DNA from: a virus
DNA: 64,000 bases
Direction: 5' to 3' (one strand)
Virus record (IMG/VR): IMGVR_UViG_3300037011_001068
Span: 1-64,000 of that record
The notes under the pieces are model-generated. The model saw only the letters and a list, made by a program, of their open reading frames with translations. It searched no databases and was not told where the DNA came from. Positions within the stretch are counted from its first letter, which is position 1. The number at the start of each line of letters is the position of its first letter. Of the stretch, positions 1,049-62,459 are shown one piece after another. A program made the position numbers and the translations under genes.

Positions 1049-1719
1049 TCCATCGTCTTCTTTATACGACGTTACAACAGGGTGTCCAGCAATTTTTGGG
1101 CAATCTATCCCTGCTTGAGGATATTTTTCTTTGGGATTATGACTTGGAGCAAAGCGAGATGGATCTCATCAAGAAGTATTTTGTGGAACATCCTCCAGTA
1201 GTGATCAATGGGTACATGAGGAGGGATGCAGTTTTTCCTTCGGTAGCGATTGTTTTGGGGCAAGAGCAAGAGACTGACAAGTTTATTGGGGATCATGCTG
1301 GTATATTGGATGAAGAAAATGAAGAGCATAATGGGGCTGATATTAAGGGTTCAATCTGGGATTACGTTTACCATATATTCATTTATACTGAGCATCCTGA
1401 CATTACAGCATATTATTATGAGATTATGAAAGCTATCTTGATTTTGAATCTTCCGGTTTTCTATAAGTACGGACTCTTTGACGTTGCATTTTCTGGACAG
1501 GATTTGGCACCCGACGTGCAGTATCTCCCAGAACATCTTTTTGTTCGCCAGCTTCAGATGTCTTGTCGAAGGGAATCTAATCACGTTGATCAGGGATCGC
1601 GGTTAGGCAAAGCTTACAAGGTGACAGGCATTGCCATTGACAGATCGGGCAGTCCGCGCGATCCTGGCGAAGTAAAAACCCTTGTCACGCTTACTGATCC
1701 AGGAGGCACCCATGACTAA
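1045..1719 (+). CDS. putative tail terminator/completion protein
   Basis: ATGA overlap with previous gene; FPSVAIVL..E motif; position upstream of the sheath. Confidence 0.5.
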   Translation: MIHRLLYTTLQQGVQQFLGNLSLLEDIFLWDYDLEQSEMDLIKKYFVEHPPVVINGYMRRDAVFPSVAIVLGQEQETDKFIGDHAGILDEENEEHNGADIKGSIWDYVYHIFIYTEHPDITAYYYEIMKAILILNLPVFYKYGLFDVAFSGQDLAPDVQYLPEHLFVRQLQMSCRRESNHVDQGSRLGKAYKVTGIAIDRSGSPRDPGEVKTLVTLTDPGGTHD

Positions 1720-2014
1720 GGCCAAGCAGGACACCCCCGAGACCCCCTTGGAGGGTTCAACCCCTAAAAGCGATCCTGTTCTTTTTGGTGCAGCCGAGGC
1801 ACGTATGACCCCTATGCCTCAAGCTTCGCCAGTGGAACCACCCTTGGAGACAAAAGTCGCGGTTCCTTTCGCGATTTTTGCGTCTTTGAGTGGGCTCAAA
1901 GTAGACCAGATCGCAAGCTTTAGACACTTTGCCCAGAAATCGAAGCTCGGGCCCATGGCAGTTGAGTCATGGAGACTTGCGCTTCAGGAATTTCTGGCCC
2001 GGCCGTGCAAGTGA
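1712..2014 (+). CDS. small hypothetical protein preceding the sheath
   Basis: AGGAGG SD before ATG 1712. Confidence 0.55.
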   Translation: MTKAKQDTPETPLEGSTPKSDPVLFGAAEARMTPMPQASPVEPPLETKVAVPFAIFASLSGLKVDQIASFRHFAQKSKLGPMAVESWRLALQEFLARPCK

Positions 2015-2024
2015 GAGGTGACGC

Positions 2025-4331
2025 ATGCCCACGTCAATTTTTTTCAACGGCAAGCTGATCTCGGTTCCAGGAGCCTATTCGCGGGTGGATGCTTCCGGTC
2101 TTGAGCAGGTAGGTCTTGGCGCTTCGGGGATTGTGGCTGTAATTGGGTCCGCGGTTGGCGGGAAGCCCGCTTCAGCGATGTTTGAGCCAAAGGATTTCCT
2201 CCGAATTAAGAAGCCAGAGACCGCCCGCGTAATTTTTCGCTCCGGAGATCTTCGCGAAGTAGCGGACATGGTGTTTGCCCCCTCGAGTGATCCGGATATC
2301 CAAGCGGGGGCTCAAGAGCTCGTGTGCATGAAGGTGAATCCAGCTACCCAGAGCGTAGCCACGATGGCCAATGCTTATGGGAATTCCCTTTCGCTCACTT
2401 CCCTGGATTACGGGGCGTACACCGGGCAGATCAATGCATCGGTGGCGGCCGGTACGTCTAAGGGTAAGCTCCTTTCGATTGTTTTCGAGGATTCGGTGGA
2501 GTCGGTGGACGATCTTGGCGGAGACGTGATCCTCAAGGTCAAGTACGTGAAGCCGACAGGCGGCTGGGATACCATGTCCAGTCAGATCCAAGCGGATGGC
2601 TCCTTGAAGTGTCTGGCAACTCGATCTTCTGCCGGCTTGGATACCGATATCTCCGGACAGCTCTCTGGCAACATTGCGTTGCAAGTGAAATCCTCGAGCG
2701 CTTCAGACGTTGGCCTGGTGGTGACCGTATACGGGCTAGATGCCTCTAGCGCGGCAATTTCTGCCTCCTACACTTTGAGTGGTGTCACAGCAGTTCCGGG
2801 AGCCACGGTGTTCTCCAAAGTTCTCGGCGCGCGTGTAGCTGGCACCACAGTGGGTACGGTGACTGTGGAGCCTTCCGGCGGAGGTACTGCGGTGCTCACC
2901 CTGGCAGCCGGAGCGAACCCCCTCAAAGGCCTCTCCAAGGCCTCCTGCATGTATGCCAGTGGAGCGCTCACAGTGGTCGCTAGCGGAGCAAGCGCGGTTC
3001 CTCTCCTCCTCATCGGCTATAGCGCGACCGGGCTCGCACAGCTCGAGAAGCTCACCCTGAACGGAACAACACCTGTGGTCGGGACAGCTAATTGGTCAGA
3101 GGTGACTTACGTTGCGCTTGGCATGGTCTTGGTCGCGACCTCGGTAACGGTGAGCGGAATAGCGCTCCTCTCCACCGCGGCGGTGCAGAGTACAGTCCAG
3201 AAATTGACGGACTACGTGAACGCCAAGGCGGCTGGGGGGTCAGGGTTCGTGATGACTCTTGAGACTGGCTTGACCACCTTGGCAGTCATTGATTTGGACG
3301 TGACTACCGGGGCGCAAGGCGCGGTTAGTTGCTTGAGCCCAGCGGAGCCATCCTATTACGCTGATCTTTGGGCCATGAAAAATTGGATCAACCAAACTTC
3401 GGTGCTCGTTACTGCAACGAAAGCTACAGGTGCAAAAGGTGGGGCCCCTGCTAACACCGTGGCGGCAGTATTTCTGGCTGGAGGCTCTGAGGGAACCACT
3501 TCCGTCTCAGATTGGCAAAATGCGCTCAATCTGCTCAAAAAAACTCGGGTCAATTCGATTGTGGTTCTCACCGCGGATCCGGCCGTGCATATAGCGTTGG
3601 ATGCTCATTGCGCGTATATGTGCGGAGAAGGGCGATCGGAACGAGATGGTTTTGTCGGCTTGCTGAATGCGGGCCTGACCGATGTCGCAACCAAGGCTGA
3701 GATCAAAGATCAGATCGTGAGCTTGAACAGCCGGCACATTCGAGCTTTTGGACAAGCTTTTGAGCGGTACAACACGGCGGGTGATCGGCAGGAATTCCCG
3801 CCCTGCTTTCTTGCCGCTATTGCGGCAGGTATGCAAGCGGGAAGCCCGGTCGGAACAAGCCTCACCTTCAAATACGCAAACCTCCTTTCTCTTCGCCAGC
3901 ATTCCACCTGGAATCCCATGGACGATGCAGAGGAAATGGTGCAGGCGGGTTTGTGTTTTCTTGAAAGCGTGGAAGGTATTGGTCGGCGATTTGTTCGGAA
4001 CGTGACCACACATCTTTCCAGCAACATAATCGCTTACTGCGAAGGCTCGGTCAATGAAGCGGTGAACTACGCAGTCTACAATTTTAGAACCGTGCTCGAG
4101 TGGGCGGTGGGTCGCACGGGTTTTGCGGGAACGGTCAACGCTCTCAAAGCCATTGCCATCAATGCTCTTGGGCTTTTAAAAGATGCAGGGGTGATCATTG
4201 ATTCCAGATCTTTGAGCATCGAGCTCATCGTGGATGTGATGGAAGTCTCGGTGGAGATTGCAGCAGCGATCCCAGTCAATTTCGTTCCGATCACAGTGCA
4301 TCTAAACACCGTTAAACAAACGGCTGTTTGA
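2025..4331 (+). CDS. tail sheath protein
   Basis: N-terminal IFFNGK..PGAYSRVD and C-terminal PVNFVPITVHL motifs; LAGGSEG, AAIAAG and VRNVTTH motifs of contractile sheaths; 768 aa. Confidence 0.92.
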   Translation: MPTSIFFNGKLISVPGAYSRVDASGLEQVGLGASGIVAVIGSAVGGKPASAMFEPKDFLRIKKPETARVIFRSGDLREVADMVFAPSSDPDIQAGAQELVCMKVNPATQSVATMANAYGNSLSLTSLDYGAYTGQINASVAAGTSKGKLLSIVFEDSVESVDDLGGDVILKVKYVKPTGGWDTMSSQIQADGSLKCLATRSSAGLDTDISGQLSGNIALQVKSSSASDVGLVVTVYGLDASSAAISASYTLSGVTAVPGATVFSKVLGARVAGTTVGTVTVEPSGGGTAVLTLAAGANPLKGLSKASCMYASGALTVVASGASAVPLLLIGYSATGLAQLEKLTLNGTTPVVGTANWSEVTYVALGMVLVATSVTVSGIALLSTAAVQSTVQKLTDYVNAKAAGGSGFVMTLETGLTTLAVIDLDVTTGAQGAVSCLSPAEPSYYADLWAMKNWINQTSVLVTATKATGAKGGAPANTVAAVFLAGGSEGTTSVSDWQNALNLLKKTRVNSIVVLTADPAVHIALDAHCAYMCGEGRSERDGFVGLLNAGLTDVATKAEIKDQIVSLNSRHIRAFGQAFERYNTAGDRQEFPPCFLAAIAAGMQAGSPVGTSLTFKYANLLSLRQHSTWNPMDDAEEMVQAGLCFLESVEGIGRRFVRNVTTHLSSNIIAYCEGSVNEAVNYAVYNFRTVLEWAVGRTGFAGTVNALKAIAINALGLLKDAGVIIDSRSLSIELIVDVMEVSVEIAAAIPVNFVPITVHLNTVKQTAV

Positions 4332-4360
4332 GTCGCGAGATCAGAAAGGATAGGTGCGCT

Positions 4361-5502: not shown

Positions 5503-5848
5503 AGCTGAAAAGAATTTCTGGACGACAGCCCGGCAGCTTCAGCGGTGGTGGTCCCGAAAGTACAAGCTTCCCCTGAATCATCCCCTCTGCATCGGGCAGG
5601 CTGAAGGGGAGCTTCGGCAAGAATTTATCGAGGACCTCCTTGAGCGGCGACATGACCTCGAACAGGAAATCAAGGAGACGAAAGGTGCGGATCTTTCAGC
5701 GATCGAGCGCCAGCTCCGAGGGGTACTCCGAGCTCTTGGGGAGGAGCCGGAAGAGGAGTACGATCCTCTCATTGAGCAGTGGGAAAAAGACATAGAAGCG
5801 GGCCTAGACCCTTATGTGGAGGAACCTAAATGGCCGATAAAGAAGTAA
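5474..5848 (+). CDS. tail assembly chaperone C-terminal extension (+1 frame, likely expressed by frameshift)
   Basis: Overlaps the chaperone in the +1 frame; RWWSRKYKLPLNHP motif; no obvious SD/start of its own. Confidence 0.6.
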   Translation, partial: FTATETVRCRAEKNFWTTARQLQRWWSRKYKLPLNHPLCIGQAEGELRQEFIEDLLERRHDLEQEIKETKGADLSAIERQLRGVLRALGEEPEEEYDPLIEQWEKDIEAGLDPYVEEPKWPIKK

Positions 5849-8224: not shown

Positions 8225-9715
8225 ATGCCGCGAGGATTTCAAGGTAGCGAGACCACCAGGGCTCTTGTGACCGTTTATCAGCACGGGGATGATCCTATCC
8301 TTTTGAGCTCGGAGCCTGGGGAATTTGGAATTGCTGGACGAGGCGGAGAGGATGTTCGTCCAGTTGTACGGATGGTATCAGCGAGTAAAATTTTAGGGGA
8401 TCCTTCGGGTTCTTTCCAGGTGGATGTGAAGCCCTCTCGCGCAGCGGCTTCGCTCTTTCAGCGTCTTGATGGGGATGACTGGATCGATATTTCTTTTGGG
8501 AGGCATGGGCAATATTGGCACGTCTTCCGAGGGCTAATCAAAGATCTTCGGCGTTCCCAGACGGTCAACGGACGAGGCGCGACCGTGGAGTCTTTTACAA
8601 TTTCTGGAGAGGATTTTGGCTCAATCTGGATGAACAGCCCGATTTGGTTCTCCCCTTATGCCAACGACATGGTAACTGAAGCTGTATGCGCCAAAATTTT
8701 TGATTTTAAGCCAGCAATTCGAGGAGCTCCCAATGAAGCGGTGAAAGGTTACTTGAAAGGCTTTCTCGAGGAGCTTCGGAGTAACAAGGGCCCTAATTGG
8801 AATCCCCCAAATTCCATGCCTGGGATCGTGGAGGGAAGCTTTTTGAAGAGCGTTTCCTTTTGGGATGACGCGGGAGCGGGTGGCTTTCAAAATCTCCCGA
8901 AACGGCAAGCCTTCAATCCAAACTTTGGAAATGAAGATGCTCAGCTATGGCAGCTTGCCATTGAGCATTCTGATCCACTTTTTGTAGAGGTGTTCACGGA
9001 GCTTTTCGCTGAGGGAAGTCCGGTTGGATCAAAAACGCAGAAAGGAGATCCTCTTTCGCCAAAGGATTCCAAGATGACGGTGGTCATTCGGGATCGGCCT
9101 TTTCCAGTAGTCGATCCAGAAATTGCGGCGATCGGTTACAAGGCCTCCTGGGATAAGCTCCCCGTGTTTGTAATTTCTCCTCAGCAGATTGTCTCTCGGG
9201 AGCTTGTGCGTAGTGAGCGAGAGCGATTCAATGCCTATTTCGTCTCGAGCCTTTTGCAGCAGGAAGTTGCGGGTCCCTATGCTTTGAGCCTCATGGCCCC
9301 CCTGATTCATGAGAAGAGCATGCAACGGCATGGGCTTCGACGGATGGACATTCAAACCCTACAAGTGCCGGTTGATCTGCGGTTCGATCGTCTTGCTGAG
9401 GTGCAGAGGCGTATTCTTCGAGATTTTTACTGCATGAACCCTTATTTTTTGAGCGGAACAATTGATCTCGCGATAGGTCGTCCAGAAATTAAGCTCGGAA
9501 CGCGCGTTCGGGTGCTTCCTATGCGCGTGGATGAACCGGAAGAAAATTTTTATGTGGAGTCTTGGACCCATCGTTGGCAATTCGGGCAGGGAATTCGGAC
9601 CTCCCTCGGTGTAACCCGCGGATGGCTTGGGGATGACAGAGACTACCTTGGGTGCTTGCAAGAGGAGAGTAAAAATTATCGAGTGCCTACTTTTTTGGGA
9701 ACCTTTGGAGTTTAA
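8225..9715 (+). CDS. baseplate hub-like protein
   Basis: VFRGLI...ISGED, SGTIDLAIGRPEIKLG and FYVESWTH...TSLGVTRG motifs typical of hub proteins. Confidence 0.7.
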   Translation: MPRGFQGSETTRALVTVYQHGDDPILLSSEPGEFGIAGRGGEDVRPVVRMVSASKILGDPSGSFQVDVKPSRAAASLFQRLDGDDWIDISFGRHGQYWHVFRGLIKDLRRSQTVNGRGATVESFTISGEDFGSIWMNSPIWFSPYANDMVTEAVCAKIFDFKPAIRGAPNEAVKGYLKGFLEELRSNKGPNWNPPNSMPGIVEGSFLKSVSFWDDAGAGGFQNLPKRQAFNPNFGNEDAQLWQLAIEHSDPLFVEVFTELFAEGSPVGSKTQKGDPLSPKDSKMTVVIRDRPFPVVDPEIAAIGYKASWDKLPVFVISPQQIVSRELVRSERERFNAYFVSSLLQQEVAGPYALSLMAPLIHEKSMQRHGLRRMDIQTLQVPVDLRFDRLAEVQRRILRDFYCMNPYFLSGTIDLAIGRPEIKLGTRVRVLPMRVDEPEENFYVESWTHRWQFGQGIRTSLGVTRGWLGDDRDYLGCLQEESKNYRVPTFLGTFGV

Positions 9716-10842: not shown

Positions 10843-12864
10843 ATGGGTACACTGGAAAGAATCCAGGAAAATGCGCGAGAGATTCTCGAGCAAGACAGCA
10901 AATTTCTGGAGAGGAGCCTATTTTTTTTCGAGCTTCGATTGCCTACCCGGTATTCCGTGACCGGGAGCAACCGATTTCTTTTCCCGATCATGCTTCCACC
11001 GAATTCTTATACCCTGGAAGAGCCGTTTTCGCTGGAAGTGACTCGCACCCAAGACGCGGGGCTTTACGTTGAGGAAAACGGGATCATCGAACGGAAAATT
11101 CAACTTCGAGGGCATACCGGTTTTCGACCTCGGTCGCTTACGGTAGCCAAGGGAAGTGGGGTAAATGTAGCGGTTCCGATTCATTCAGTAGAGCAGAGCC
11201 ATTCTCGTACACTTCCGATGACAGTTTATTCCCAGATTTCTGGACAACGCCACTTTCAGTATTTACAGGATTCTGTGTTTCGAGCGTATGGAGACTTGAA
11301 AAAAAATCCGGAGACTGCTAAGGACACGGCACTTATTTTCCACAATACCCATGATCAAGAAGCCTGGTGGGTAGTCCCGGAAACCTTTACGCTCGAGCGG
11401 GATTCCAAAAGTCCTTTCTTGTACCGCTATTCGATAACGCTTCTCGTGGTAGGCGCGGGAGCTCTCCTGAATATCGATTTTTCGGAAGATATTAGTATCT
11501 TTAATAAATTGAAAAATTTTGTGTCAAATATAAAAGAAGCTGTTCAATTAGCGCAGGGGGCATTAAATGATTTAAACGCTCTTTCTAATGAGGTAGGTAA
11601 ATTCGTCCGGAATCTCAGAGATATTATTTTTCAAGTTGGGGATATTTTGGATGGGGCACAGAAATTCGCTGATGGTATTTCACCTATGATTGATATTCCT
11701 CTAGCATCTTTAAAAGCTACTTTGAATCTCATAACCAATGCTGCAGCAAGCATTGAAGCATATATAGAGCATAATGAAGGATCCGCAAAAACTTTTCCGG
11801 ATACCGTAAAACAGAAATTTTATGCTATTGAAGGCGCACTTGAGAATCTTGGAACGAATTCTGCAGTTTGGGAAACACCTTATGAGACTACCATCCGAAA
11901 GATTCGAGAACAGCAAGAGGGGCGATATCGAAATGAGGTTGCAGGATGGTCTTCCTCTGCTTATGCGTTAGATTCAGCGCAAGTCCAAAAGGACATGGCG
12001 GCTAAGGGGATTGCTCTTAAGCCTGTGAGCACCCTAGAAGATGTTCGGAACCTTGGAACAGCTTACACCCCCGGCGAGCTCACAAGCTTGCAGGGGAAGA
12101 GCGTAGTCGGTCGGGCAACCCCACAATATCGATCCGCGCGATCGGTAACCGTGGCGCAGGGGGATACCTTATCCTCTCTGGCGGCACGCTACCTGGGAGA
12201 CGCGAGGCTTTGGCAGAAGATCGCGATCCTGAATGGTTTGAAGCCCCCATTTCTGGATTATCAGGCTTCTGCTCCACTGGTCGGGTCAGTGCGGATAGCG
12301 AGCGAGATCACGGGTGCTGCTAGTGGAGCAGACGAGGCTCCTTTTATCAACGCTTTGGGCCTCGGTTCGGAAATTCTGATCCCATCCAACATGCTCACTC
12401 CTAATGATTTCCCCCTTCTCCCCGTGCTGGGAGTGCAGTCTGATGAAAGCTCTGAAAACCAGTTTTGCGGAACCGATCTTCTCCTCAAGCCGGTTCAGGA
12501 TGCTACCGCTTCCAGCCGTGTTTTGTACGATGTTCCGATCGAAACTGAGCTAGGGAGCGTGGACGCACAAACGATTTCTGGGGTTCAAAACGTTATTCAA
12601 ATGCTCCAAACAAGGCTCACCACTGAGAGAGGGGCAGATACGCTTTACAAGCAGGTAGGGATCGATCGTGTGGTAGGCCTTGGGTTCAGTGGAATCGATA
12701 TCGAGCTTTTCAAATTTCGGATTGTGGAGGCGGTCATGAAAGACCCTCGAATTGCTGGAGTAAGAAAGCTCGAGGTACTTGAGGAGCTCGATCAAATGCA
12801 GGTTCGGATGGAAATCACGGTACGTGGATTTGCGGAAGCTCGAGTGCTCCGCGTGAATTTGTGA
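10843..12864 (+). CDS. multidomain baseplate protein (tube-initiator-like + LysM + gp25-like)
   Basis: LysM VTVAQGDTLSSLAARYLGDARLWQKIA; C-terminal RLTTERG...DPRIAGV gp25/GPW-like motif. Confidence 0.7.
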   Translation: MGTLERIQENAREILEQDSKFLERSLFFFELRLPTRYSVTGSNRFLFPIMLPPNSYTLEEPFSLEVTRTQDAGLYVEENGIIERKIQLRGHTGFRPRSLTVAKGSGVNVAVPIHSVEQSHSRTLPMTVYSQISGQRHFQYLQDSVFRAYGDLKKNPETAKDTALIFHNTHDQEAWWVVPETFTLERDSKSPFLYRYSITLLVVGAGALLNIDFSEDISIFNKLKNFVSNIKEAVQLAQGALNDLNALSNEVGKFVRNLRDIIFQVGDILDGAQKFADGISPMIDIPLASLKATLNLITNAAASIEAYIEHNEGSAKTFPDTVKQKFYAIEGALENLGTNSAVWETPYETTIRKIREQQEGRYRNEVAGWSSSAYALDSAQVQKDMAAKGIALKPVSTLEDVRNLGTAYTPGELTSLQGKSVVGRATPQYRSARSVTVAQGDTLSSLAARYLGDARLWQKIAILNGLKPPFLDYQASAPLVGSVRIASEITGAASGADEAPFINALGLGSEILIPSNMLTPNDFPLLPVLGVQSDESSENQFCGTDLLLKPVQDATASSRVLYDVPIETELGSVDAQTISGVQNVIQMLQTRLTTERGADTLYKQVGIDRVVGLGFSGIDIELFKFRIVEAVMKDPRIAGVRKLEVLEELDQMQVRMEITVRGFAEARVLRVNL

Positions 12865-12871: not shown

Positions 12872-14284
12872 ATGCCCCGTTTTGGAATCAAAAGGTACGA
12901 GCAAATCCTTTCTCAAATGCTCGCGAAAGTGGTTACGCGGACCGAGCTTTCGGACATCTCAGATACTTCGGTCGTGAAGCATATTCTTGCGGCAGCGGCA
13001 AGGCAGGACGACGAGATCTATTATCAAATGACCCTTCTCCTGGACATGTTCTCGATCGACAAGGCGGCCGGCGAGGACCTCGATGAGAGGGCGAAAGATA
13101 TTCAGCCGGCGCTCATCAGCCGGAATCCGGCGGCGAAGGCCTCCGGGAACTTGGTTTTTTCCCGGGAGACAGTTTCCGGAACCGTGGTGATCCCTGCAGG
13201 AACGAAAGGGAAGACAGCTTCCGGTCAAATATTCACGACCACGGCCGCAGGGTCCATCACCCCCACTTCCCCCGCTATCCTTCCCGGGCATGGGGTTGGC
13301 CAGGATTCGGGTCTTATCTCAGCGCTCGCGGATGTAGCGGGAATAGATGGAAATGTGGTTATGGGGACCATCATTAAATTCGCACAGAAGCCGATAGGTG
13401 TTGACGCGGTGTATAATCCAGATCCTTTTCTTTGGGGTACAGATCGCGAGTCGGATGACTCTTTTCGAGAGCGTTTGAAGCGCTACATTGCAACCTTGGC
13501 CAGGAGTACACCGAGCAGCCTGCAGAACGCAGTTTTAGGAGCTCAAGATCCGGTAACTGGTTCGATTGTTCTCTTCGCTTCAGTGGTGGAGGATCCCGCC
13601 AACCGAGGATACGTGACCGTTTATGTGGACGACGGGACGGGATCCGCAGAAGCTTACGAGGCGATAACTGGGGAAATCCTGACAGAAGCCCTTTCAGGCC
13701 CTCCTCCAGGAGCAGCAGTTGGGGGAGAAGAGGTGCTATTCACCACGAGAAAGCCCATTAAAGGGGATACGCTTTTCACGATTGCGAGCACGATTCGTGG
13801 AATTCTCACGATTGGCTCTGACTTTTTTTTGAACAGAGCGAGTGGGCAAATCAATTTCACCCCTGGGCTCACCGCGGGTGAAATTCTCACGGTGGACTAT
13901 ACGGCCTACACAGGGCTTATCGCGTTTGTCCAGAAAATCGTGGATGGGGATTTGCTGGACCCGATAAATTTTCCAGGGTATCGCGCAGCGGGTATTCTGG
14001 TTTACGTGAGAACCCCCCAGGTACTTACGCAATCAGTGACGGCAACGGTAGTGGTCAAAGACGGATACGACCATTCTGAAGTGCGAGCAAACGTCAAAAA
14101 TTCGATCATGGAGTACATTAATGGTCTTGGAATTTCTGGAGATGTTCTAGTGGCTGAAATCGTGCGAAAAGCTATGACTGTAGCTGGCGTTTATAATTTT
14201 TATTTGATCAGCCCAACTGGTGATATTTATTTGCTGGACGATCAGATCGCACGAATCACGGAAGGGAACATCATCATTAATTGA
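12872..14284 (+). CDS. baseplate wedge protein (BW2/gpJ-like)
   Basis: AAGEDLDERA, GTDRESDDSFRER, GYVTVYV and YRAAGI motifs of Baseplate_J. Confidence 0.88.
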   Translation: MPRFGIKRYEQILSQMLAKVVTRTELSDISDTSVVKHILAAAARQDDEIYYQMTLLLDMFSIDKAAGEDLDERAKDIQPALISRNPAAKASGNLVFSRETVSGTVVIPAGTKGKTASGQIFTTTAAGSITPTSPAILPGHGVGQDSGLISALADVAGIDGNVVMGTIIKFAQKPIGVDAVYNPDPFLWGTDRESDDSFRERLKRYIATLARSTPSSLQNAVLGAQDPVTGSIVLFASVVEDPANRGYVTVYVDDGTGSAEAYEAITGEILTEALSGPPPGAAVGGEEVLFTTRKPIKGDTLFTIASTIRGILTIGSDFFLNRASGQINFTPGLTAGEILTVDYTAYTGLIAFVQKIVDGDLLDPINFPGYRAAGILVYVRTPQVLTQSVTATVVVKDGYDHSEVRANVKNSIMEYINGLGISGDVLVAEIVRKAMTVAGVYNFYLISPTGDIYLLDDQIARITEGNIIIN

Positions 14285-18371: not shown

Positions 18372-21300
18372 ATGGTTGCTATTCTCAATCATCCGACCCT
18401 GGCAGATTCGCTTCTCGCGTATTATGCGCTAGAAGGTAGTGTCCTTGATAGCTTTGATTCGCATAATGGAACCGCAGAAAAAACGATCAGCACAAACAAT
18501 TCTGGAGCACTCCGAAAAGCTATCAACCTGGATGGCGCAAGCGCAGCAGCGCAAAATATCGGGGTCTATCAATGCCTAAATTTCGCTGATCTTCTTGCAG
18601 GCTTTGCAAGCTTCTCGATTTCTTTTTGGCATAAGCCTGCAAATGCTGGATACGCTGTTTGCCCTCTGTCTATTGGCGGCTGGACTGGATCTGTGAATCA
18701 CCCAGAGACCCGGCTTTTGCTGGAGCACGCAACAGGGGCGAGCGGTGCGGTCAGTTTGAATTATTTTGGCACGGTGGGCTCGATTGCACTTGGATCTACT
18801 TTTGCGGCAGGATCCTGGCATCATTGGGTGATTACGGTGGGCTATAGCGTGCCTACCGGTCTCACGACGGTCTGCCTATACAAAAACGGTTTCCTCGCGC
18901 AGAGCTCCACGGTCAATATCGGTCTTGCGAAAACATCGACCTTGGCACTTCTCGTAGGAGCGAAGCATTACGGCGTGTCTGAACCTTTTCAGCGGATTAA
19001 TCTCGCAAATGCTGTGATCGATGAAATCGCCATTGCAGGCCGCGCATGGACTTCTGCGGAAGCTTTTGATCTCTGGCATTCCGGAATGCCTTTGCGCTTA
19101 GCTGAAGTGGTAGTTTCAGGCGCGGGGGACATTGAAGACTATATGGACAGCGCGCAGTACGCGCCAGGGTACGTTTATTATCCTGTGACTGATTTTGTAG
19201 CAGAGCCAGGAGCTAGTCAGGGGAGAATTGCTCTTTCTTGGGAAAACCCAATACGGGAAGACTTCCAACGTGTTATGCTCCGACGATCAGATACTTCTTA
19301 TCCGATGGAACCAGACGAAGGAGATCTCGTCTATGAAGGGATCGCAGAAGGTTTAGTTGATCTGGGTTTAGACTGGCATAAAACCTACTACTATTCGCTC
19401 TGGGCTTACGATATTTATGGATCAATCTCTTCGGCAACGAAAAGATCAGCAGTACCCTTCCCAGACATCACCCCCCCGGGGCCCATCGACGATTTTTGCG
19501 CTATTCCTGGGGTGAATAGAATTTTCCTGACCTGGACGAATCCTACTGACGGAGATCTCGCTGGCATCCTAATTCGACGATCGCAGGCTGGTTTTCCACC
19601 AGATCCAGAAAGTGGTGATCTCGTCTATGATGGCTTGGAAGAAGACACCATCGATGAAAATCTTTACAGCACGGATCCCTACTATTACAGCGGATGGGCT
19701 TATGATCCGGACTTCAATTATTCTCCTAGCACGATGGTTGCTGGACAAATCCTGATACCCTTAGAAGTGCAAACGAAACCTACGGGGCTTCTAGAAGCAG
19801 TCACAGGGGCGATCGGAGAAAGTGATTCTGAAATTGCTGGATTCCAACTGACTCGCACCACAGCAATGGTTTCCAAGGGAAGTGCGTTTCTCCCAGTGGA
19901 AACCACGCTTAATTGGCCAGAGAGTGGTGCGCTTGCAATTGATGGGATAAAGTATCGCTACACTTCTAAATCTCTTAGCTCGTTTTTAGGGTTGACTTGC
20001 TTTACAGGGGGAGTGGAAGAAAATGGTACGCTAATTTCTCATCGCGCACAATCAATAGTCATGGATGCTTCGCGTGAGTGGAATGCGATCGAGCAGCTCC
20101 GAAGAGCGCTTTTGGTCGATTACGCGAAAGCAGAGGATTTGAACGTGATCGGTCGAAACCTCGGGGTTCCCCGAATCCCCCTCTACTCGACTGAAGAGCA
20201 ATTTCGCGCGGTGATCAAGGCGACAGCCTACAATCCAAAAGCTACTATGCTTGGAATCAGGCTTGCGCTAGATGCCTTACTTGGGCCCGAAAACTATTCC
20301 CTGTACGAGGATCTTGTTAGCCATCCTTGCACCCTTTATGTTCGGATTGCCGGCATGGAATCCATGCTTCTCTCGGTCGGGAAAACCTACTTTACGTCTC
20401 TCGCGTGGACGGCAATTCAGGGAATCATGACCACCCTCGAGCTCGAAGATGCCCCCCTCAAAGTGGAGGGCGTGCGCCTCAAAAAGATGTCCGAGGTATT
20501 CAATCTGAAAACCGCTATCCCCTCGGCGGTGACCTATGACTACTATCCCGAAGCGCCGGCTCCAGGGAATGCCTTTTCCTATCAGGGGGGGCTCAGTGAG
20601 GGAACGAATGTCCTTTTGACCGCTGGGGAGTATACCACCATCCAGGCGCTCTCCATCGGAACAGTGTTTTACCGGATGGCGGATACCCAGGGCGCGAGGA
20701 TTACCCCTCAGAGCCGTGCGGAGGTCTCCTGGCTTGTTTGCATTCCTACGGGGGCTACCTTGAAGGCAGGGGAGCTCTCCCAGGCTTCCTTGAGCCTCTA
20801 TAACGGTTCTCGCAGCTTGAATATCGGCATGGAGAGCGACCGGACGATCGGGCTCTATGCCAATAACGTGGGGGGATTTCTAGGAGCGACCTTCGGGCCC
20901 CTCGAGCTTGATCGGTTTTACGAGGTGGCTCTGAAGCAGACCCCCAGGGGGCAGGCAGAGCTCTGGGTGGATGGTCGGAAGGTCTCCTCGGTGGGGACGA
21001 ACCTTTTTGACGCCACATCCTTTCATCGGATCGAATTTGGCATTCGAGGGGCTCCTTCTGCGGGAATGCGCCTTCGCGTAAAGCAGGTGGGAGTCTTCTC
21101 TGAAACCATTCTGGATTTCTGGAATTGTAGATTTACAGGAATGGTGGAATCAGTAAATCCAGAAAAAATCACAGCGGAGACGGCGGTATTCGTGACGAGC
21201 GATGTGGGGAAACAGATTGAACTTTCCGGAGCTATAGCGGTGAATCCTTCTGGGGGAACCAATAACGGAATTTTCTGTATTTCTGGATTACTGGGTGTCG

Positions 21301-25248: not shown

Positions 25249-25662
25249 GTGACACGCAATGAACAAAAAATAAATATGACGGAGAGCGAAGCAACCGAAT
25301 ACATGCAGGCGCTCGTGGAGGGAAAGCGCACCGTGGAGCAGCCAATGGAGGCATTTGCGCTCGAGCGCTTGAAAAAAGGGTTCCAGCGGATTCAGCAGCT
25401 CCAAAGTGCTGTCCAGCAATTTCAAGCGGACCTCCAGCGGGCGCAGGCGGAAATCCAGCAATTGATCGGAGAGCGCGGAGCGTACAGCTCGATCCTGGTA
25501 AGCGCGGAAAATGATCGGCGGCGGCTAGGAAAAGAAATTCCTCCGGAACTCATTTTTCCGCCAGGTGCTCGAGCAGCGGGAAATCCAGCGGCAATTGCGG
25601 ATTTCATTGCGGAAAAAAATCGGAAGGAGGCGATAAATGCCCCCGATGCCAGCGCCCAATGA
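25249..25662 (+). CDS. coiled-coil hypothetical protein
   Basis: AAGGAGG SD before GTG; heptad-like IQQLQSAVQQFQADLQRAQAEIQQL. Confidence 0.6.
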   Translation: MTRNEQKINMTESEATEYMQALVEGKRTVEQPMEAFALERLKKGFQRIQQLQSAVQQFQADLQRAQAEIQQLIGERGAYSSILVSAENDRRRLGKEIPPELIFPPGARAAGNPAAIADFIAEKNRKEAINAPDASAQ

Positions 25663-32496: not shown

Positions 32497-32511
32497 GGAG
32501 AGGAGGATTTT

Positions 32512-38019: not shown

Positions 38020-38026
38020 GGTGCTC

Positions 38027-45208: not shown

Positions 45209-45647
45209 TGATCAGCGGCGTGTTTCTGAAATTTACTATGCGTTAGAGGGTGTCTACAGCGAATTTCACCCCGGTTCTGTTGGCGTGGAAGCGTATAACC
45301 CTTTTCGGAAGATGGGAAAGGGCGCTGGACCTCGGCAAAGCACAATTTCTGGATGGAAGGCGGGTGGTATTTATTTTGGCGTGAATTTTTGGGCTTTATC
45401 CCGGCATCTTCTCATTACGGCATTTTTGCCGATGGATCTGAAAAAGAGATTTTGTGGGAAAATTTCCGCGTCAAAAGAAGAGGTGGAGAAGGCGCTTTAC
45501 AGCCAGGTGGATGGGCTTTACCCTGTGATCCAGCAATTGCCGGTGACCAAGCGGGAGCACGCAGCAGATGCCGCGGGGCATGCTGTTCTCGTCCTGGAAG
45601 AGGTGTGGCGCATGCGGCAAATGCTTGGTTTAGGAGGTGCCGAGTGA
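44988..45647 (+). CDS. ruvC: RuvC Holliday junction resolvase
   Basis: VLGIDPG, VGVE, P..LKK..CG..SASKEEV, HAADA; AAGGAG SD. Confidence 0.88.
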   Translation: MPEGLKRTPIPLQKKDWALNPSQVVLGIDPGFGSLGMAVLEAEPGKKPRTLAARVVSTARASKKQIKDFRVTNDDQRRVSEIYYALEGVYSEFHPGSVGVEAYNPFRKMGKGAGPRQSTISGWKAGGIYFGVNFWALSRHLLITAFLPMDLKKRFCGKISASKEEVEKALYSQVDGLYPVIQQLPVTKREHAADAAGHAVLVLEEVWRMRQMLGLGGAE

Positions 45648-45973: not shown

Positions 45974-46706
45974 GGCAGCTCCCAGAGTCACTCTGGCGCC
46001 GGATGCGGTGCTCGAGGCACGCCGGATAACACGGGGCACTCAAGAGCAGCCGGAGTGGGTGCTGGATGGGACCTCGGAGAATCCAGAGGATTCGATTTCC
46101 ACCGCCTGGCTGCGGCAGCTTGCGGGGATCCAATATTCTACTTCGCAGGCGGGAATCACCGTGCCGGAAATGAGTCGTATGCCTCCGTTTGACCATGTGT
46201 CGATTCGGACGCTCGAGGGATGGTGCGCGTATGATCATTGGGAGGATAAGCGGAAAGAGTATTTTGCTCGGCTGCGAGATCAAATTGAGCAGCGGCTCGC
46301 AGCGTCAGTGGTGGAGACGCGTGTCCAGCATTTGCAGCGAATCGACAGCATTGCCGAAGCCATTATAGCTGACATTGAGAGCAAAGAGGTTGGTTACAAG
46401 AGCAGGGAAGGCATGATCACGGCTCTAGTAAAATTGCTGGAGGTTGGGGATCGCATGCGTGAAAAGGTTGCTGCTCGGATAGCTCCTAAGCTCGATTGTG
46501 CGGGTGTCCTCACCCTCACAGCAGAGCTTTCCGAAGATGAAGCTCGTGCTGCAGCCAAGTTGATTATGAAGACTCGGCGAGAGAAGCTTCGGGCGGGGTT
46601 ACCTAGTCCAGAAATTCGAGAGCAGGATTCTGGGGAACCAGGCCGTTCTAAAATGATCCGTCGTCCGGTATGCGATGGTAAGAATAATGGCGAAACGGTG
46701 GAGTAA
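45915..46706 (+). CDS. HTH protein, possible terminase small subunit
   Basis: VSIRTLEGW....HWEDKR HTH followed by coiled helices. Confidence 0.4.
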   Translation: MLTEETKPRRRRPIHPPKAKAAPRVTLAPDAVLEARRITRGTQEQPEWVLDGTSENPEDSISTAWLRQLAGIQYSTSQAGITVPEMSRMPPFDHVSIRTLEGWCAYDHWEDKRKEYFARLRDQIEQRLAASVVETRVQHLQRIDSIAEAIIADIESKEVGYKSREGMITALVKLLEVGDRMREKVAARIAPKLDCAGVLTLTAELSEDEARAAAKLIMKTRREKLRAGLPSPEIREQDSGEPGRSKMIRRPVCDGKNNGETVE

Positions 46707-52663: not shown

Positions 52664-52695
52664 CTGTTGATCCAGAAATTTGAAGGAGGTAGCAA

Positions 52696-52824: not shown

Positions 52825-53677
52825 ATGGCAGCCGAGGCGCTTGAAAAAATAGATGCTTCTTTGCGAGTGCTTGAAGAGTGCGTGATTTATCGTTGGGCTG
52901 AGATAGAAGGGCTTATCATAGAGGATCTAAGGCGCCAGGGGCTCTCTCTGCTACCTGGCTCGTTTTTTATCATGCAGGGATACCAGCAGATTATGGCGAT
53001 GGTGGCTCCTACGGATCAGCTTAAGGTTAAGGCTATAGATCGGATGCAGGGTATGAGTGTGATTGCAAGTCCAGAAATTGGGTTGGAGGCTTTGCATGCG
53101 GAGCAGGCAACTCCGTTGACGGCAGAAGAGCTGGCGGATGGTCGAAGTGAGGATGAAATGAAGCGTGTAGAAGAGCTGGCGAATTTATTCTGGGATCCAG
53201 AAATGAAGGGAGGAGGCTCCTTTGAAAAATCGTAGTCAGGAGGCTTGTGAAGTATGTGGAATCGATCTTTTGTCGAATGAAAAAAAGAAGTGCTGCATGT
53301 GCCGGCGTGGAGACTCCTACCCACCCGTCATAAAGCCGCTAGTGAATGTTACAGGGCATTTTTCCCTGCAATTTGAGCTACAGGTGCCTGATGGTGTGGA
53401 CGATGAGACGATCCAGCAAATCATCGAAGCGCGTCTCTGCGAGGAGTGGGTGGAATTGCCGAGGGGTGGCGCTTTTGGTTCAGCGAGGCTCCATGTTTTT
53501 CGGCAGGATCCATTTTTGCTGGTGTTGGGTGAGGATGGACGGATGGAGAAGCCGAAAATATGGGAGGATTGCCGATATAGCCGAGCGGTGAAGCGGGCGG
53601 TAGCGCTCTACATGTGGGGGCCTACGTCAGAGGGGATATCGGCGTCTGGAGATCAATCCAGCAATTTGGAAAAATAG
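52825..53677 (+). CDS. two hypothetical genes (52825-53235, 53222-53677)
   Basis: SDs present; the second has CxxC...CxxC. Confidence 0.5.
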
Positions 53678-53719
53678 GATTGGTTGAGTGGAAAGTAATT
53701 TCTGGATCGAGGTTGTAGG

Positions 53720-54033: not shown

Positions 54034-54059
54034 TCCAGCAATTCAGAAAGGGGCAGTAC

Positions 54060-54329
54060 ATGGAGTTTATTCGTTGTTTTAGGGTAGTTCCTTGAGGGCT
54101 CGAGCCGTTCGAGGCTGTGGAGGAGGATGCGGAATTCGGCTGTGAGGGGGTGATCGATGATGGGGCTCCTGCGGATCTGATAATTCTTGAACGACCCGTT
54201 AATGGGAATATTTGGGAAGAGATATCGAGGAAGGAATTTCTGAATCCGAAAGAGGCCAGCTATTTTTTAATAGAGCTCGTTGCTGGCAAGCGCCTTTGGG
54301 AAGATCAATCCAGCAATTTGAAAAAATAG
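54060..54329 (+). pseudogene. hypothetical gene with in-frame TGA at 54093-54095
   Basis: SD and ATG 54060 in frame with track ORF 54117-54329. Confidence 0.45.
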
Positions 54330-54533: not shown

Positions 54534-54561
54534 TCCAGCAATTTTTACCTAGGAGGCGATT

Positions 54562-54897
54562 ATGGAAGAGCGGAAAAAGGGTTCGTTGACTGAAGCTGGG
54601 GTTTTTCGGATTTTGCGGGATAAGGGTTTGTTGGTTGAAGCCAAAGATTCGCGGATTCCATGGGACGGGGAACTATTGATTGAAGCCAAAGCTGCTTGGA
54701 TTTTGCATGACAGGGATGTTTTAAATTGGCGGGGCAAGCTTGCGCGGAGGCTGCAGTATTTTTTAAAGGAAAATGCCGGGGTGAAAATCAGCTACCGCAT
54801 GGCGGTGCAAGCGCTAGGATCTGTCTTTGGGCTGGACCAGTATTTAAGGAAGGCGATTATTGATCGTCTTCACGAGGCTAAGAAATCCAGCAATTAG
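54562..54897 (+). CDS. hypothetical protein
   Basis: AGGAGG SD. Confidence 0.6.
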   Translation: MEERKKGSLTEAGVFRILRDKGLLVEAKDSRIPWDGELLIEAKAAWILHDRDVLNWRGKLARRLQYFLKENAGVKISYRMAVQALGSVFGLDQYLRKAIIDRLHEAKKSSN

Positions 54898-55139: not shown

Positions 55140-55207
55140 AGAAAAAGAATCCAGCAATTGAATTTTCTAAATCAGGAGTGTGGTCGAATTTTCGATCGGA
55201 AGGTGCG

Positions 55208-55648: not shown

Positions 55649-55881
55649 GGGAGGAGTGTGCTGTGGAAGAAAGAAATCCAGAAATTGAGGTAGCGACCGA
55701 AGGGAAGAAGCTGCGGACATGCTTTTTGTGCAAGGTGGAAAAGCCTCTCGCTGAATATTATTCCCGCGCGGGGGCGCGGTACGCTTACAGCGTGTGGTGT
55801 AAGAGCTGCAGGCGCGTGAAGGCAGTAGAGTGCGTGAGGCATTTGCGGTTGACCAAAGAGGAGGTGCTCGAATGGACGTGA
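55645..55881 (+). CDS. zinc-finger protein (HNH/endonuclease VII N-terminal-like)
   Basis: CFLCKVEKPL.EYY......WCKSC. Confidence 0.6.
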   Translation: MREECAVEERNPEIEVATEGKKLRTCFLCKVEKPLAEYYSRAGARYAYSVWCKSCRRVKAVECVRHLRLTKEEVLEWT

Positions 55882-56611
55882 CTTCAGAGATGCGATGGCG
55901 GCCGATGAGTAAAGCCCCCCGGTCATGCATCTTGCTCGGGTGGGATGGGCTCGTGACGGAAGGGATCCGGGGTGAGGACGGGCGGTGGTGCGTTCGAGGC
56001 GCGTATTTTCCGGAGCAAGAATTTCGGGCTTGGCTGCCTTTCCCAGAGGTCTTTCCTTTTTTTCCATGGGAGCCGGCGCTTGGCATTCAGAAGAGCTCCG
56101 AGCAGCCTGTTTTTATCTCTCTCATCATCGAGGCGTTCTCCCGAGAGCTCCAGGTGCGCTTCAGCGGGAGGGTCCTTGGGATGGTCGTGGAGGAGAGCCT
56201 CTGGGAGAAGCTCCGAGCGGAAATACCAGTGGCTTGCTTGGGGGTGGAGACCCGGGTGAGTATTCGTTCGCCGGTCTCTCTTCTAGAGCTTTCTGGGGTC
56301 CTGATCAATACTGAGGTGGGCCCGGTGCGGGTCGTTCGGGAAAGCGAGGGGAGGTGGCCATGAGGTTCACGATTGATGTGGTGGCGAAGTGCTCAGCGTG
56401 CGGGGGGCTCATGGAGGTTCGGGACATGCAGCCGGATATTCAGGGGTGCGCGGTGTTCACGGTGGACAATTGCCAGGTGTGCCGAATCGCGCTGGAAAAA
56501 GAGACACGCGAAGGTGTTATCCAGAAATTTTTTGGTCGTAGGTCTAAGGCTTTGACTAAGGTCTCAACGAAATGCGGTAAGAAGCGGGGAACCAAGCGAG
56601 CGAAAGGATAA
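55872..56611 (+). CDS. two hypothetical genes (55872-56363 with a DUF551-like WRPM...AWLPFPE N-terminus; 56360-56611 CxxC protein)
   Basis: Coupled starts and stops. Confidence 0.5.
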
Positions 56612-57064: not shown

Positions 57065-57720
57065 GTGACAACGGGGATAAATTGCTGGATTCAGAGATCA
57101 AGCTTGAGCCTGCGGTGCTGACAAAAGACGGGGGCGTGACGGTTGAGTACATTTACGAGCGGACTTGGACGGCGCTTAATCGTCTGCGGTCATGGGCTCA
57201 GATGATCTCTTGTAAATTGCGCCCCCCTGATAAGGAGGGCAGCGATAAAATTTGTGACGGCATGGAAGATTTTTCGTATATACAAGATTCCATTGATGCG
57301 CTTGCATTATGGGATATTTTTGCTGAGCTCCGTATACATGAGTGTCGTTCTGGGGTTGTGTGGAAGAAAAAAGTGGAAGGTGAGGAAGAGCGAATTTCCG
57401 CTGGGGCTATGGAAAGGCGCATTTCCGAGCTTGCGGCCAAAGGCCCTTGTTCCGATTTTCTCAGATTCGATCTTGAGCAGGAATTTTGGCAGAAAATCCT
57501 TGGTGGGGAAGCGGCCGCGGAATCGGTGCTTCGGGTGTCACGAGCGGCAGTGGACTTTCGATTTGCCATTGAGGCGCTTTGTGCGTCTTCGCGGGAGCGC
57601 TCTCTTGCGATTACTAAGCTCGAGGAGGCGGTTTTGTGGGCGCGAGAATACGTGCTCAAGCGGGCATTGCAGGAGGCTTCATGCGGGGTGCTTCGTGGTC
57701 TATCTTCCCAGAAAAAGTGA
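57061..57720 (+). CDS. protein with C-terminal Acb2/Tad1-like helical hairpin
   Basis: IEALCASSRERSLAITKLEEAVLWA. Confidence 0.55.
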   Translation: MSDNGDKLLDSEIKLEPAVLTKDGGVTVEYIYERTWTALNRLRSWAQMISCKLRPPDKEGSDKICDGMEDFSYIQDSIDALALWDIFAELRIHECRSGVVWKKKVEGEEERISAGAMERRISELAAKGPCSDFLRFDLEQEFWQKILGGEAAAESVLRVSRAAVDFRFAIEALCASSRERSLAITKLEEAVLWAREYVLKRALQEASCGVLRGLSSQKK

Positions 57721-57756
57721 GTGGTTCTCTTCGATTGCAATCCAGAAATTTCGGGG

Positions 57757-58207: not shown

Positions 58208-58399
58208 ATGTCATTTGAAAGTGAAATTGTGAAGTATTGCTTGACGTGCCAAAATATAATTGCTGGACGCGATGGAAATCGTTGTGCTGTGCATCAAAAT
58301 CTTTTGATTTTTCCTGATGACGCGTTAAAAGTGCCTCCACCTTGCGGTGGAAAAAGCTGGGTGATTCAGTCAGCCTTGGAGCTATTATGGCTAAAATAA
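58208..58399 (+). CDS. small Cys-rich protein
   Basis: CLTC...C...PPPCGG. Confidence 0.55.
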   Translation: MSFESEIVKYCLTCQNIIAGRDGNRCAVHQNLLIFPDDALKVPPPCGGKSWVIQSALELLWLK

Positions 58400-61442: not shown

Positions 61443-61468
61443 GAGTTTCTGGATCGGGAGCCTAGGGA

Positions 61469-61765
61469 TTAGAGATTCTTTTCCACGATACATTCAATAA
61501 TGGATACCATGGGGACTCCTTTCTCCGCGGCTGCTAAGCGCAGCCGTTTATGGAGCTCGGCAGAGATATCGAGCGTGACCCGGCGGACTTCGCGTTTGCT
61601 GGGTTTTTTTTGTGGAGAAGAATTTATGGACGAGAATTTGACCTCTTCGGGTTTTGCGAGTGCTGCGGGCTCTGCGGGCTCTGCGGTATCCAAGGGAACC
61701 TCGGTGCCTTGCACCCAGGAGTCGGCGGAGGCCTTCGGGGGGATGATGATTTTTTTCTGGGTCAT
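61469..61765 (-). CDS. ParG-like ribbon-helix-helix partition protein
   Basis: [26 protein letters not shown]; flexible N-terminus; overlaps the parA stop. Confidence 0.8.
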
Positions 61766-62400
61766 GACATGTACCCTTTCACGATTTCTGAGAGTACGGC
61801 GAGGATTTCTTGGGCGGCCTTGTTGTCGTCGGTCAGCGGTTGCTCCAAGACCGTGCTTCCAGAGCTCGCGGTTTCAGCAAAGCTGACCCGCTGGCAAATA
61901 GAGGCTGCAAGGACAGGGAGCTGGTATTCCGCGAGAGCGCTTGCCACGTCTCGTCCAATTGCGGTTCCGACGATTTTTCTGTTCACCACGAAGGCGCATT
62001 TCATTTTGGGGTTGTAGATGGCTGCTTCTTTGGCGAGATTCACTACGTCCTGAGCGGCCCATACGTCGTAGGGGGAGGGCTGGACGGGGATCAAGATGAG
62101 GGCGGAGGCGAGCATGGCGCTCCGCACAAGTTCTGTGGTCCGTGGGGGTCCGTCCACGATGACGTGATCATACCCTTTTGCGATGCCGTCGAGGTCTCGG
62201 TGGAGGACCGGTCGATCCATCGCGACGACCGAGAAGAGGGGCGCGATTTGGCGGGTGGCGAGCCAATCCCGGGCGCTCCCTTGGGGGTCCGCGTCCACGA
62301 GGAGGACTTTGTGGTGCCGGAGCGCGAGCCCGGTTGCGAGGTGGAGAGCGACGGTGGTTTTTCCGACGCCTCCCTTTTGGTTCAAAATAGCGATGTGCAT
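61762..62400 (-). CDS. parA: ParA/ParF type Ib partition ATPase
   Basis: AAGGAG SD then [16 protein letters not shown]; DADPQGS; VDGPP; PVQPSPYD. Confidence 0.95.
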
Positions 62401-62410
62401 GATTACTCCT

Positions 62411-62459
62411 TTCAGTGGTACAGTAAATCCAGAAATCCAGTATTCTGGATTTCCGGGTG
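62411..62459. promoter_or_regulatory. 8-bp-period repeat array upstream of parA (candidate operator/centromere)
   Basis: TTCAGtgg TACAGtaa(a) TCCAGaaa TCCAGtat TCTGGatt TCCGGgtg; includes inverted repeat GAAATCCAG-TATT-CTGGATTTC. Confidence 0.65.

Follow-up and report, generated by a model that had tools for sequence, protein, structure and literature searches.

The stretch of DNA considered here, positions 1 to 64,000 of the IMG/VR virus record IMGVR_UViG_3300037011_001068 (the window), makes up the opening 64 kb of one virus contig of 105,756 bp, called G000 in the comparisons below, and the element in question is a short DNA word, TCCAGMAATT, that recurs along it. Pfam and PHROG matches mark G000 as a phage of the myovirus type whose replication and recombination genes are in the style of T4 and SPO1. 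Its structural genes encode a tail sheath, a tail-tube initiator, baseplate J, a portal and an intein-bearing large terminase, and giant polyvalent proteins are also present; replication is represented by an SF2 helicase, DnaB, a primase and a family A polymerase with an intein, and recombination by RecA/UvsX-like, Mre11-like, Rad50/SbcC-like and RuvC proteins. Near the right end of the window lie a parA gene, its ParG-like ribbon-helix-helix (RHH) partner and an operator-like array of repeats (Table 1).

TCCAGMAATT occurs 41 times in the window, against 0.39 expected and a maximum of 2 in 100 dinucleotide shuffles, and its 8-mer core TCCAGMAA occurs 81 times against 7.4 ± 2.7 expected; the 41 sites listed by the first-pass annotation proved exact in every coordinate and strand. 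The whole contig holds 64 copies of the 10-mer (44 on the + strand, 20 on the −) and 139 of the core, so that the word recurs about once per 750 bp. The enrichment persists under a codon-preserving shuffle of the contig, a control which that annotation had itself proposed, with 64 10-mers seen against 13.8 ± 1.7 and 139 8-mers against 32.5 ± 3.9. Sites lie in all three reading frames, both sense and antisense. Their spacing along the contig is Poisson-like (coefficient of variation about 1), and no clusters or preferred short spacings of word sites were found.

Single-substitution analysis of the word shows near-zero tolerance of change at positions 1-8 (TCCAGMAA), T preferred over A at position 9 and T over C at position 10. 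The base at −1 is a purine in 54 of the 64 copies and that at +10 is G or T in 47 of them, and no conservation was seen in the flanks of these copies beyond those two positions. The unit is an asymmetric word, R-TCCAGMAATT-K, and not the 16-bp dyad of which it had been taken to be the conserved half: perfect copies of the dyad number zero, and right halves matching at four or more of six positions are found at 11 sites where about 4 are expected, a faint surplus. A second over-represented word, GGAGCTTGAGG, is unrelated and comes from a coding tandem repeat in gene 38593-40386. This repeat (39564-39991, 24-42-bp units) encodes an APQAPSGW-type proline-rich linker within a 597-aa core protein and accounts for the 11-mer that ranks second in over-representation. 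Searching the literature for the letters of the motif returned primer noise only.

Individual sites are maintained by purifying selection. Where the two relatives G001 and G013 align (69 kb at about 70% nucleotide identity), 60 of 88 instances of TTCCAGAA are retained at the same place, the figure for all other 8-mers of these alignments being 9.1%, and third-codon identity is 0.82 inside the sites and 0.51 outside them (Fisher p about 1e-20). Against the closer relatives L189 and L214, 15 of 16 and 11 of 12 sites are kept over a background of 11-12%. Relatives do therefore keep the word at synonymous positions, a check proposed in the first-pass annotation, whose view that the word is a signal in the DNA under selection and not an amino-acid motif is borne out by the codon shuffle, by the conservation of third codon positions and by the use of all frames. 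Across a change of dialect, between G000 and G001, 6 of about 70 sites are co-located in 33 orthologous genes, which is above the chance bound of 0.13. As judged from these alignments, sites are kept within a dialect and, on a change of dialect, are apparently rewritten elsewhere.

Placement takes little account of genes. Sites touching non-coding DNA make up 4-9% of the total, and the non-coding fraction is about 5%. Counts of sense and antisense sites in five genomes are 77:50, 54:71, 69:63, 18:41 and 12:13, in G001 and G013 the split between strands is close to 50:50, and there is no regional polarity. Such blindness to genes and orientation tells against promoters, operators, RNA signals and stoperators, and the likeness to mycobacteriophage stoperators suggested earlier fails precisely on the orientation bias that defines them. 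G000 alone has the 10-mer about 2.4-fold enriched at junctions of small accessory genes, between 52 and 58 kb; selection for density is the simplest account of this, non-coding junctions being the cheapest place to put the word.

G000, whose DNA is met, among the sequencing runs listed, only in contigs of sediment metagenomes and in no RNA data set, belongs to a large uncultured clade with genomes of about 105-110 kb. Relatives of its sheath protein number 76 in IMG/VR and over 360 in a large protein collection; many are on contigs of 103-113 kb, some of which bear terminal repeats. One clade member, G013, is classed as a provirus. A blastn search against a collection of cultured phages returned no nucleotide relatives of G000, and the nearest matches of its DnaB are in SPO1-like Bacillus phages, at about 28% identity.

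When the words of these relatives were ranked by unbiased k-mer counts, several proved to have a related word of their own. G001 (G+C 0.554) carries 112 copies of TTCCAGAAA; TTCCAGAA is the word of both G013 (G+C 0.585, 141 copies) and G017 (G+C 0.573, 64 copies in 56 kb); G022 (G+C 0.655) has TTTCCAGACT, with 30 copies of its TTCCAGAC core on a 70-kb contig; G016 (G+C 0.668) has the palindrome TTCCGGAA at 155 sites and G014 (G+C 0.642) TCCGGA at 319 sites; and G015 (G+C 0.64) shows a weaker TCCAGC-type word (50 copies of TCCAGCAA). Further variants, TCCAGACT, TTCCAGAG and TCCAGAAT, occur on partial contigs. By the same ranking no such word is present in G002, G018, G019, G020 and G021 (G+C 0.33-0.68). 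The dialects share the core TCC[A/G]G[A/C] across carriers with a G+C from 0.52 to 0.67, and they map onto a tree built on a 4,582-column concatenation of 12 core proteins, in which TCCGGA-type words belong to G014 and G016 and TCCAGA-type words to G000 together with G001 and G013; the low-GC pair G018/G019 is without the word.

Duplex-site density is 1.31, 1.24, 1.46 and 1.15 per kb in G000, G001, G013 and G017, and 1.41 per kb in the palindromic dialect of G016, with Poisson spacing in every genome examined. For a reader specific to one strand, half that number of palindromic sites would be enough, and the equal duplex density of the palindromic dialect thus suggests a reader of double-stranded DNA that is blind to orientation. 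G004 and G005, two other viral contigs, at first seemed slightly enriched, and unbiased k-mer ranking gives them other top words. In the 55.7 kb of G017 (L406-L408) a second over-represented word, TACCACAT, is found in 32 copies against 1.3 expected.

The clade also shows pronounced biases in palindromes. ACTAGT, AGTACT, TTCGAA, CGTACG, GTCGAC and TGCGCA all have zero copies in G000, where 23-26 of each are expected, GAGCTC (119 sites) and CTCGAG (81) are 3-4.5-fold enriched there, and the set of avoided palindromes differs in each relative. Such complete avoidance points to strong restriction pressure on phage DNA that is apparently unmodified. The absence of TCCGGA from G002 and G015 was considered as a special case and set aside, this being one among many wholly avoided palindromes.

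The ParG-like RHH protein of the partition module was the first-pass annotation's best candidate for a protein that coats the genome at the word sites. The product of parA matches Pfam AAA_31, CbiA and ParA, is 58-67% identical to annotated plasmid ParA proteins and lacks an N-terminal helix-turn-helix (HTH). The 364-aa minus-strand open reading frame at 61762-62856 is an over-extension: the conserved ATPase start lies at 62400, and the operator falls inside the spurious N-terminal extension. The RHH partner gives weak RHH_10 and HicB matches, and, judged by eye, its C-terminal block can be aligned with the 77-78-aa partners of two plasmids (L422, L423); the same ParA + RHH architecture is found on Aeromonas and Xanthomonas plasmids. 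The array upstream of parA is real, keeps its 8-bp register and shares the core of the word, as had been proposed, and nowhere else on the contig do three or more ATCCAG/CTGGAT hexamers fall within 30 bp; of the three units of the array, however, a single one is a genuine copy of the dispersed word (TCCAGAAA, 62428-62435, + strand). The upstream repeats of the plasmid homologues, read by eye, are different (ATTACA and TTTCTGT motifs); the agreement of operator and word is therefore peculiar to G000.

Neither parA, nor the RHH gene, nor any of the 51.6-63.2 kb block has a homologue in G001, G013, G014 or G016, all of which carry the word family at a density equal to or higher than that of G000. 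The expected co-occurrence of the word with a parA-parG pair is contradicted by six relatives that have the word family and not the module. The module is thus not why the word exists and at most exploits it; on the evidence of the array it is possible, if doubtful, that the G000 partition protein has secondarily co-opted the resident word.

Table 1. Word sites and partition features of the window (positions in the window; every listed word site is an exact match)
Feature	Positions	Strand	Remark
word TCCAGCAATT	1085..1094	+	
word TCCAGAAATT	3196..3205	+	
word TCCAGAAATT	5513..5522	-	
word TCCAGCAATT	8329..8338	-	
word TCCAGAAATT	8599..8608	-	
word TCCAGAAATT	9115..9124	+	
word TCCAGAAATT	9481..9490	+	
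word TCCAGAAATT	10901..10910	-	
word TCCAGCAATT	12750..12759	-	
word TCCAGAAATT	14131..14140	-	
word TCCAGCAATT	19832..19841	-	
word TCCAGAAATT	21437..21446	-	
word TCCAGCAATT	25412..25421	+	
word TCCAGCAATT	25454..25463	+	
word TCCAGAAATT	29836..29845	+	
word TCCAGCAATT	31937..31946	+	
word TCCAGAAATT	32738..32747	+	best partial dyad, right half 5/6
word TCCAGAAATT	33167..33176	+	
word TCCAGAAATT	34702..34711	-	
word TCCAGAAATT	35963..35972	+	
word TCCAGCAATT	36002..36011	-	
word TCCAGCAATT	36174..36183	+	
word TCCAGAAATT	42568..42577	+	
word TCCAGAAATT	45344..45353	-	
word TCCAGCAATT	45529..45538	+	
word TCCAGCAATT	46432..46441	-	
word TCCAGAAATT	46607..46616	+	
word TCCAGAAATT	52671..52680	+	between small accessory genes
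word TCCAGAAATT	53070..53079	+	
word TCCAGCAATT	53657..53666	+	gene junction
word TCCAGAAATT	53697..53706	-	
word TCCAGCAATT	54034..54043	+	gene junction
word TCCAGCAATT	54309..54318	+	gene junction
word TCCAGCAATT	54534..54543	+	gene junction
word TCCAGCAATT	54886..54895	+	gene junction
word TCCAGCAATT	55150..55159	+	gene junction
word TCCAGAAATT	55677..55686	+	
word TCCAGAAATT	56520..56529	+	
word TCCAGCAATT	57080..57089	-	
word TCCAGAAATT	57741..57750	+	
word TCCAGCAATT	58258..58267	-	
span of all 81 window copies of TCCAGMAA	1085..62435	.	40 of 81 without final TT; series runs on to contig end, 105,756
8-mer core copy	61446..61453	-	just 3' of the ParG-like RHH gene
ParG-like RHH partner, 98 aa	61469..61765	-	overlaps parA by ATGA
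parA	61762..62400	-	212-aa type Ib ParA-family ATPase; G000-specific accessory gene
parA operator-like array	62427..62450	-	units ATCCAGAA / TACTGGAT / TTCTGGAT, 8-bp register, directly upstream of parA

Several other genes of G000 deserve mention. A 231-aa protein (57025-57720), encoded in the G000-specific accessory block, has an Acb2/Tad1 hairpin domain (E 2e-7) and by this match may act as a sponge that soaks up cyclic-nucleotide signals of defence systems. An ADP-ribosylglycohydrolase (50668-51627, E 9e-61) is common to G001 only. An Hfq-like protein (29062-29361) has Hfq_1 and Hfq matches just under the Pfam cut-offs, and a 343-aa protein (47681-48712), kept in most complete relatives, matches the C-terminal domain of the beta sliding clamp weakly (E 4.5e-4, below cut-off). 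The intein of the family A DNA polymerase lies in the window (35167-38019; Pfam Intein_splicing/Hint) and that of the large terminase beyond it (L291:1128-3689, contig 64128-66689; Pfam Intein_splicing and LAGLIDADG_3), the terminase insertion (about residues 100-400) being missing from all relatives. Four giant proteins are encoded at contig positions 67757-91273 (L291, L292), and their domain content is shuffled between relatives: one of 2068 aa with ddrB-ParB, LPD1 and DUF5661, one of 1136 aa with an SNF2 helicase, one of 1510 aa with InPase and nucleotidyltransferase domains, and one of 2116 aa with no known domain. Further core proteins without an assigned function are encoded in the window at 29336-30028, 37943-38527 and 46675-47394. 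No tRNAs were found in the window.

Two putative DNA-binding proteins encoded in the window were examined as candidate readers of the word. A second RHH gene (32497-32772) lies between the primase and a DUF2924 gene (33567-34736); it is present in all complete clade genomes, is missed by Pfam, and its product has the beta-strand R-I/K-K-T-D-x-R-x-P. A fast-evolving protein encoded at 45894-46706 combines a weak small-terminase (TerS) PHROG match with an HTH-like block; its AlphaFold model (predicted local distance difference test, pLDDT, 66) has no significant fold match in the PDB, where it has no sequence relatives either. No methyltransferase or Vsr-like gene was found among the proteins scanned.

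The word was also sought in cells. With each prokaryote species represented by one genome, a search for 10-mers lying close together as inverted pairs gave at least about 120 scattered matches, roughly the chance level among the matches listed. The richest genomes reached (Nostoc, Gracilibacteria, Lacinutrix) have 0.18-0.25 sites per kb, 3-4 times a reversed-word control; 101 Desulfobacterota genomes have at most 0.16 per kb and 61 Chloroflexota genomes at most 0.06 per kb, the latter set taking in an unpublished genome, G165, on which none of the conclusions depends. None of about 190 sampled cellular genomes comes near the density of the phage (maxima of 0.16-0.25 against 1.3 per kb). Equal abundance in the host chromosome, which the first-pass annotation would have read as a host signal, is not seen in the sampled genomes. 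In a corresponding pair scan of viral contigs for TTCCAGAAA, the matches listed were mostly AT-rich contigs and tandem repeats, and the only GC-rich dense contigs among them were clade members. A Desulfobacterium metagenome-assembled genome (G026, via L029) holds 11-mers of the TTCCGGAAAAT type at about 9 times the reversed control (122 versus 13), often as overlapping palindromic pairs and at 0.03 per kb, far below the phage density; these may be transcription-factor sites.

A sequence-specific factor very probably reads the word. The explanation we favour, tentatively and with not quite an even chance of being right, is that R-TCCAGMAATT-K is the G000 version of a private DNA word, vertically inherited and common to the lineage, and that a core factor of the phage, inherited in the same way, reads it as duplex in either orientation. 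By binding the word either way round, this factor would mark or coat the DNA as self, in a role that would depend on density, such as packaging selection, shielding or compaction, and not on gene-by-gene regulation. Since no accessory gene tracks the word, the reader would most likely be a core protein whose specificity drifts. The type Ib parA/ParG-like module, once acquired, may use the pre-existing word secondarily and would not have created it.

Several observations weigh against this account. Searches of 9-13 genomes with tblastn and iterative hidden Markov models found no gene, small open reading frame or 200-residue window of a giant protein that tracks the word by occurring in every carrier and in none of the word-less genomes, nor any cognate repressor gene co-inherited with the sites. 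The core RHH protein was rejected as the reader, its DNA-facing beta-strand residues being identical across dialects and in word-less phages, and so was the TerS-like protein, whose putative recognition residues differ between G001 and G013, carriers of one dialect. The word-less G002, G018, G019, G020 and G021 share the core genes, so that a core-protein reader must have lost or relaxed its specificity in them. The match of dialects to phylogeny could equally be explained by co-phylogeny with hosts, and, as the collection scans speak for the matches listed only, a host factor may still be at work.

Such a host-imposed word, be it a Chi-like attenuator of RecBCD/AddAB, an uptake-like tag or the site of another host factor, with an inhibitor taking its place in word-less relatives, would fit statistics that resemble those of uptake sequences and Chi (a sharp short word at random positions on both strands, in dialects); phages can over-represent the Chi of their host (PMC3784561), and the lack of a phage gene that tracks the word points the same way. 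We nevertheless think it unlikely. Sampled cellular genomes stay at or below 0.25 per kb or at about 5-9 times the reversed control, closely similar cores in phages of G+C 0.52 to 0.67 imply very different hosts, density and observed/expected ratio (O/E) are far above those of phage Chi, the phages encode RecA/Mre11/Rad50/RuvC, a class that avoids Chi in lambdoids, and a palindromic dialect as dense in duplex sites as the asymmetric ones is unexpected for a strand-specific reader. This last point, together with strand ratios unrelated to GC skew or gene direction, also bears on the idea that the sites serve a strand-specific enzyme of the phage itself, as words of the DnaG-type primase (31483-32496) or as the private Chi of a helicase-nuclease, which we regard as improbable: the palindromic dialect is not at half the duplex density, and no DnaG-type primase is known to need 8-10 nt. 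Recombination-driven replication would require sites on both strands, and both are populated; about one site per 1.5 kb per strand approaches the length of Okazaki fragments, and primase and helicases are core proteins whose specificity could drift.

A repressor network like that of stoperators or P1 C1, silencing a plasmid prophage, is about as improbable. It would accommodate dozens to hundreds of asymmetric sites, a motif that drifts with genome distance as in Cluster A, the partition module of G000, the provirus class of G013 and the surplus of the 10-mer in non-coding junctions of the accessory block, and against it stand the absence of orientation bias in any genome and of an intergenic preference of the core word, a density about 5-fold that of stoperators, the lack of a co-occurring repressor gene, and the occurrence of the word in genomes with direct terminal repeats and lytic-style replication and recombination modules. 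The ParG-like RHH protein as primary cause, through a distributed centromere or a silencing coat, was the leading proposal of the first-pass annotation and now seems very unlikely. The unique 8-bp-register operator of the same core, with one unit a true word, and the different operators of homologous plasmid modules speak for it; yet G001, G013, G014, G016, G017 and G022 have the word family without a parA or RHH homologue, RHH proteins normally need adjacent repeats and the dispersed sites are single with no fixed spacing, and the beta-strand residues of the G000 protein match those of plasmid homologues with different operators. Equally hard to credit is molecular drive, by biased mismatch repair of the very-short-patch (VSP) type or by gene conversion, with a methyltransferase acting on TCCGGA-type sites. 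TCCGGA is a classical type II target that is about 9-fold enriched or wholly absent among clade members, and TCCAGA is its CpG-to-CpA transition product; still, no methyltransferase or Vsr-like gene turned up among the proteins scanned, all eight positions are conserved and not the C/T position alone, and many other palindromes are wholly avoided, which makes the zero counts ordinary restriction avoidance. Known VSP effects are, moreover, far weaker.

The private word read by a core phage factor can be generalised, in a version to which we give distinctly less credence, to an evolvable self-tag: a duplex word of 6-11 bp, kept close to a set-point of 1.3 sites per kb, by which a core machine (for packaging or DNA shielding, for example) would tell phage DNA from that of the host, a viral counterpart of uptake sequences whose dialects drift and which new modules can co-opt. 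If the reader is encoded by the phage, this would be a system of viral-DNA self-identification of a kind not yet described and, if true, a clue to how large phages that leave their DNA unmodified tell their own chromosome from that of the host. The data also provide a clean natural experiment in the co-evolution of a DNA-binding specificity with some 140 target sites, and possibly a case of a partition module taking a resident word as its operator.

Among known systems, the stoperators of Cluster A phages, bound by repressors of the L5 gp71 type (PMC6550527, PMC9283540), are likewise dozens of asymmetric, sharp sites spread genome-wide, inside genes included, with a motif that drifts between relatives, and some of these phages are plasmid prophages with par loci, as G000 has a par module. 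Stoperators are 13 bp long, come at about 25-35 to every 50 kb, are served by a known cognate repressor gene and lie mostly in one orientation relative to transcription (PMC6550527), whereas the word described here reaches about 1.3 per kb with no orientation or intergenic bias and no co-occurring repressor. The DNA uptake sequences (DUS) of Neisseriaceae and the uptake signal sequences (USS) of Pasteurellaceae, with words of 9-12 bp, are similar in occurring about once per kb, on both strands, mostly in genes and at random, in dialects and kept against drift, and they share the logic of a self-tag; they belong to cellular chromosomes and a competence machinery, in contrast to a carrier that is a phage lineage and for which the sampled genomes yielded no cellular counterpart. 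Chi in lambdoid phages is also a short word whose presence and not position matters and which is missing in some relatives. It is defined by the host and strand-specific, occurs at 0.2 per kb with an O/E of 2-5, gathers in the region from ori to cos and is shunned by phages that bring recombinases of their own (PMC3784561), unlike the present word, which is uniform and orientation-blind, has an O/E of 10-100 and is found in phages with RecA/Mre11/Rad50/RuvC.

The G000 module itself resembles type Ib partition systems (TP228 ParF/ParG-parH, pSM19035 delta/omega) in its small ParA with an overlapping RHH gene and in its upstream array in 8-bp register with direct and inverted units; the centromeres of that type are local adjacent repeats, and they are not known to be spread as single units over a whole genome. 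Cyanobacterial HIP1 (GCGATCGC) is an 8-bp word, palindromic as in the G016 dialect, present about once per kb and largely in coding DNA. HIP1 is a feature of host genomes linked to a cognate methyltransferase; here no methyltransferase was found among the proteins scanned, and most dialects are asymmetric. Iterated genome-wide words are known from bacteria (uptake sequences, Chi and HIP1) and, as oriented repressor sites, from one group of temperate phages; here a whole clade of environmental phages keeps a word blind to orientation and to genes at constant density, under purifying selection at silent sites and in dialects that follow the phage tree.

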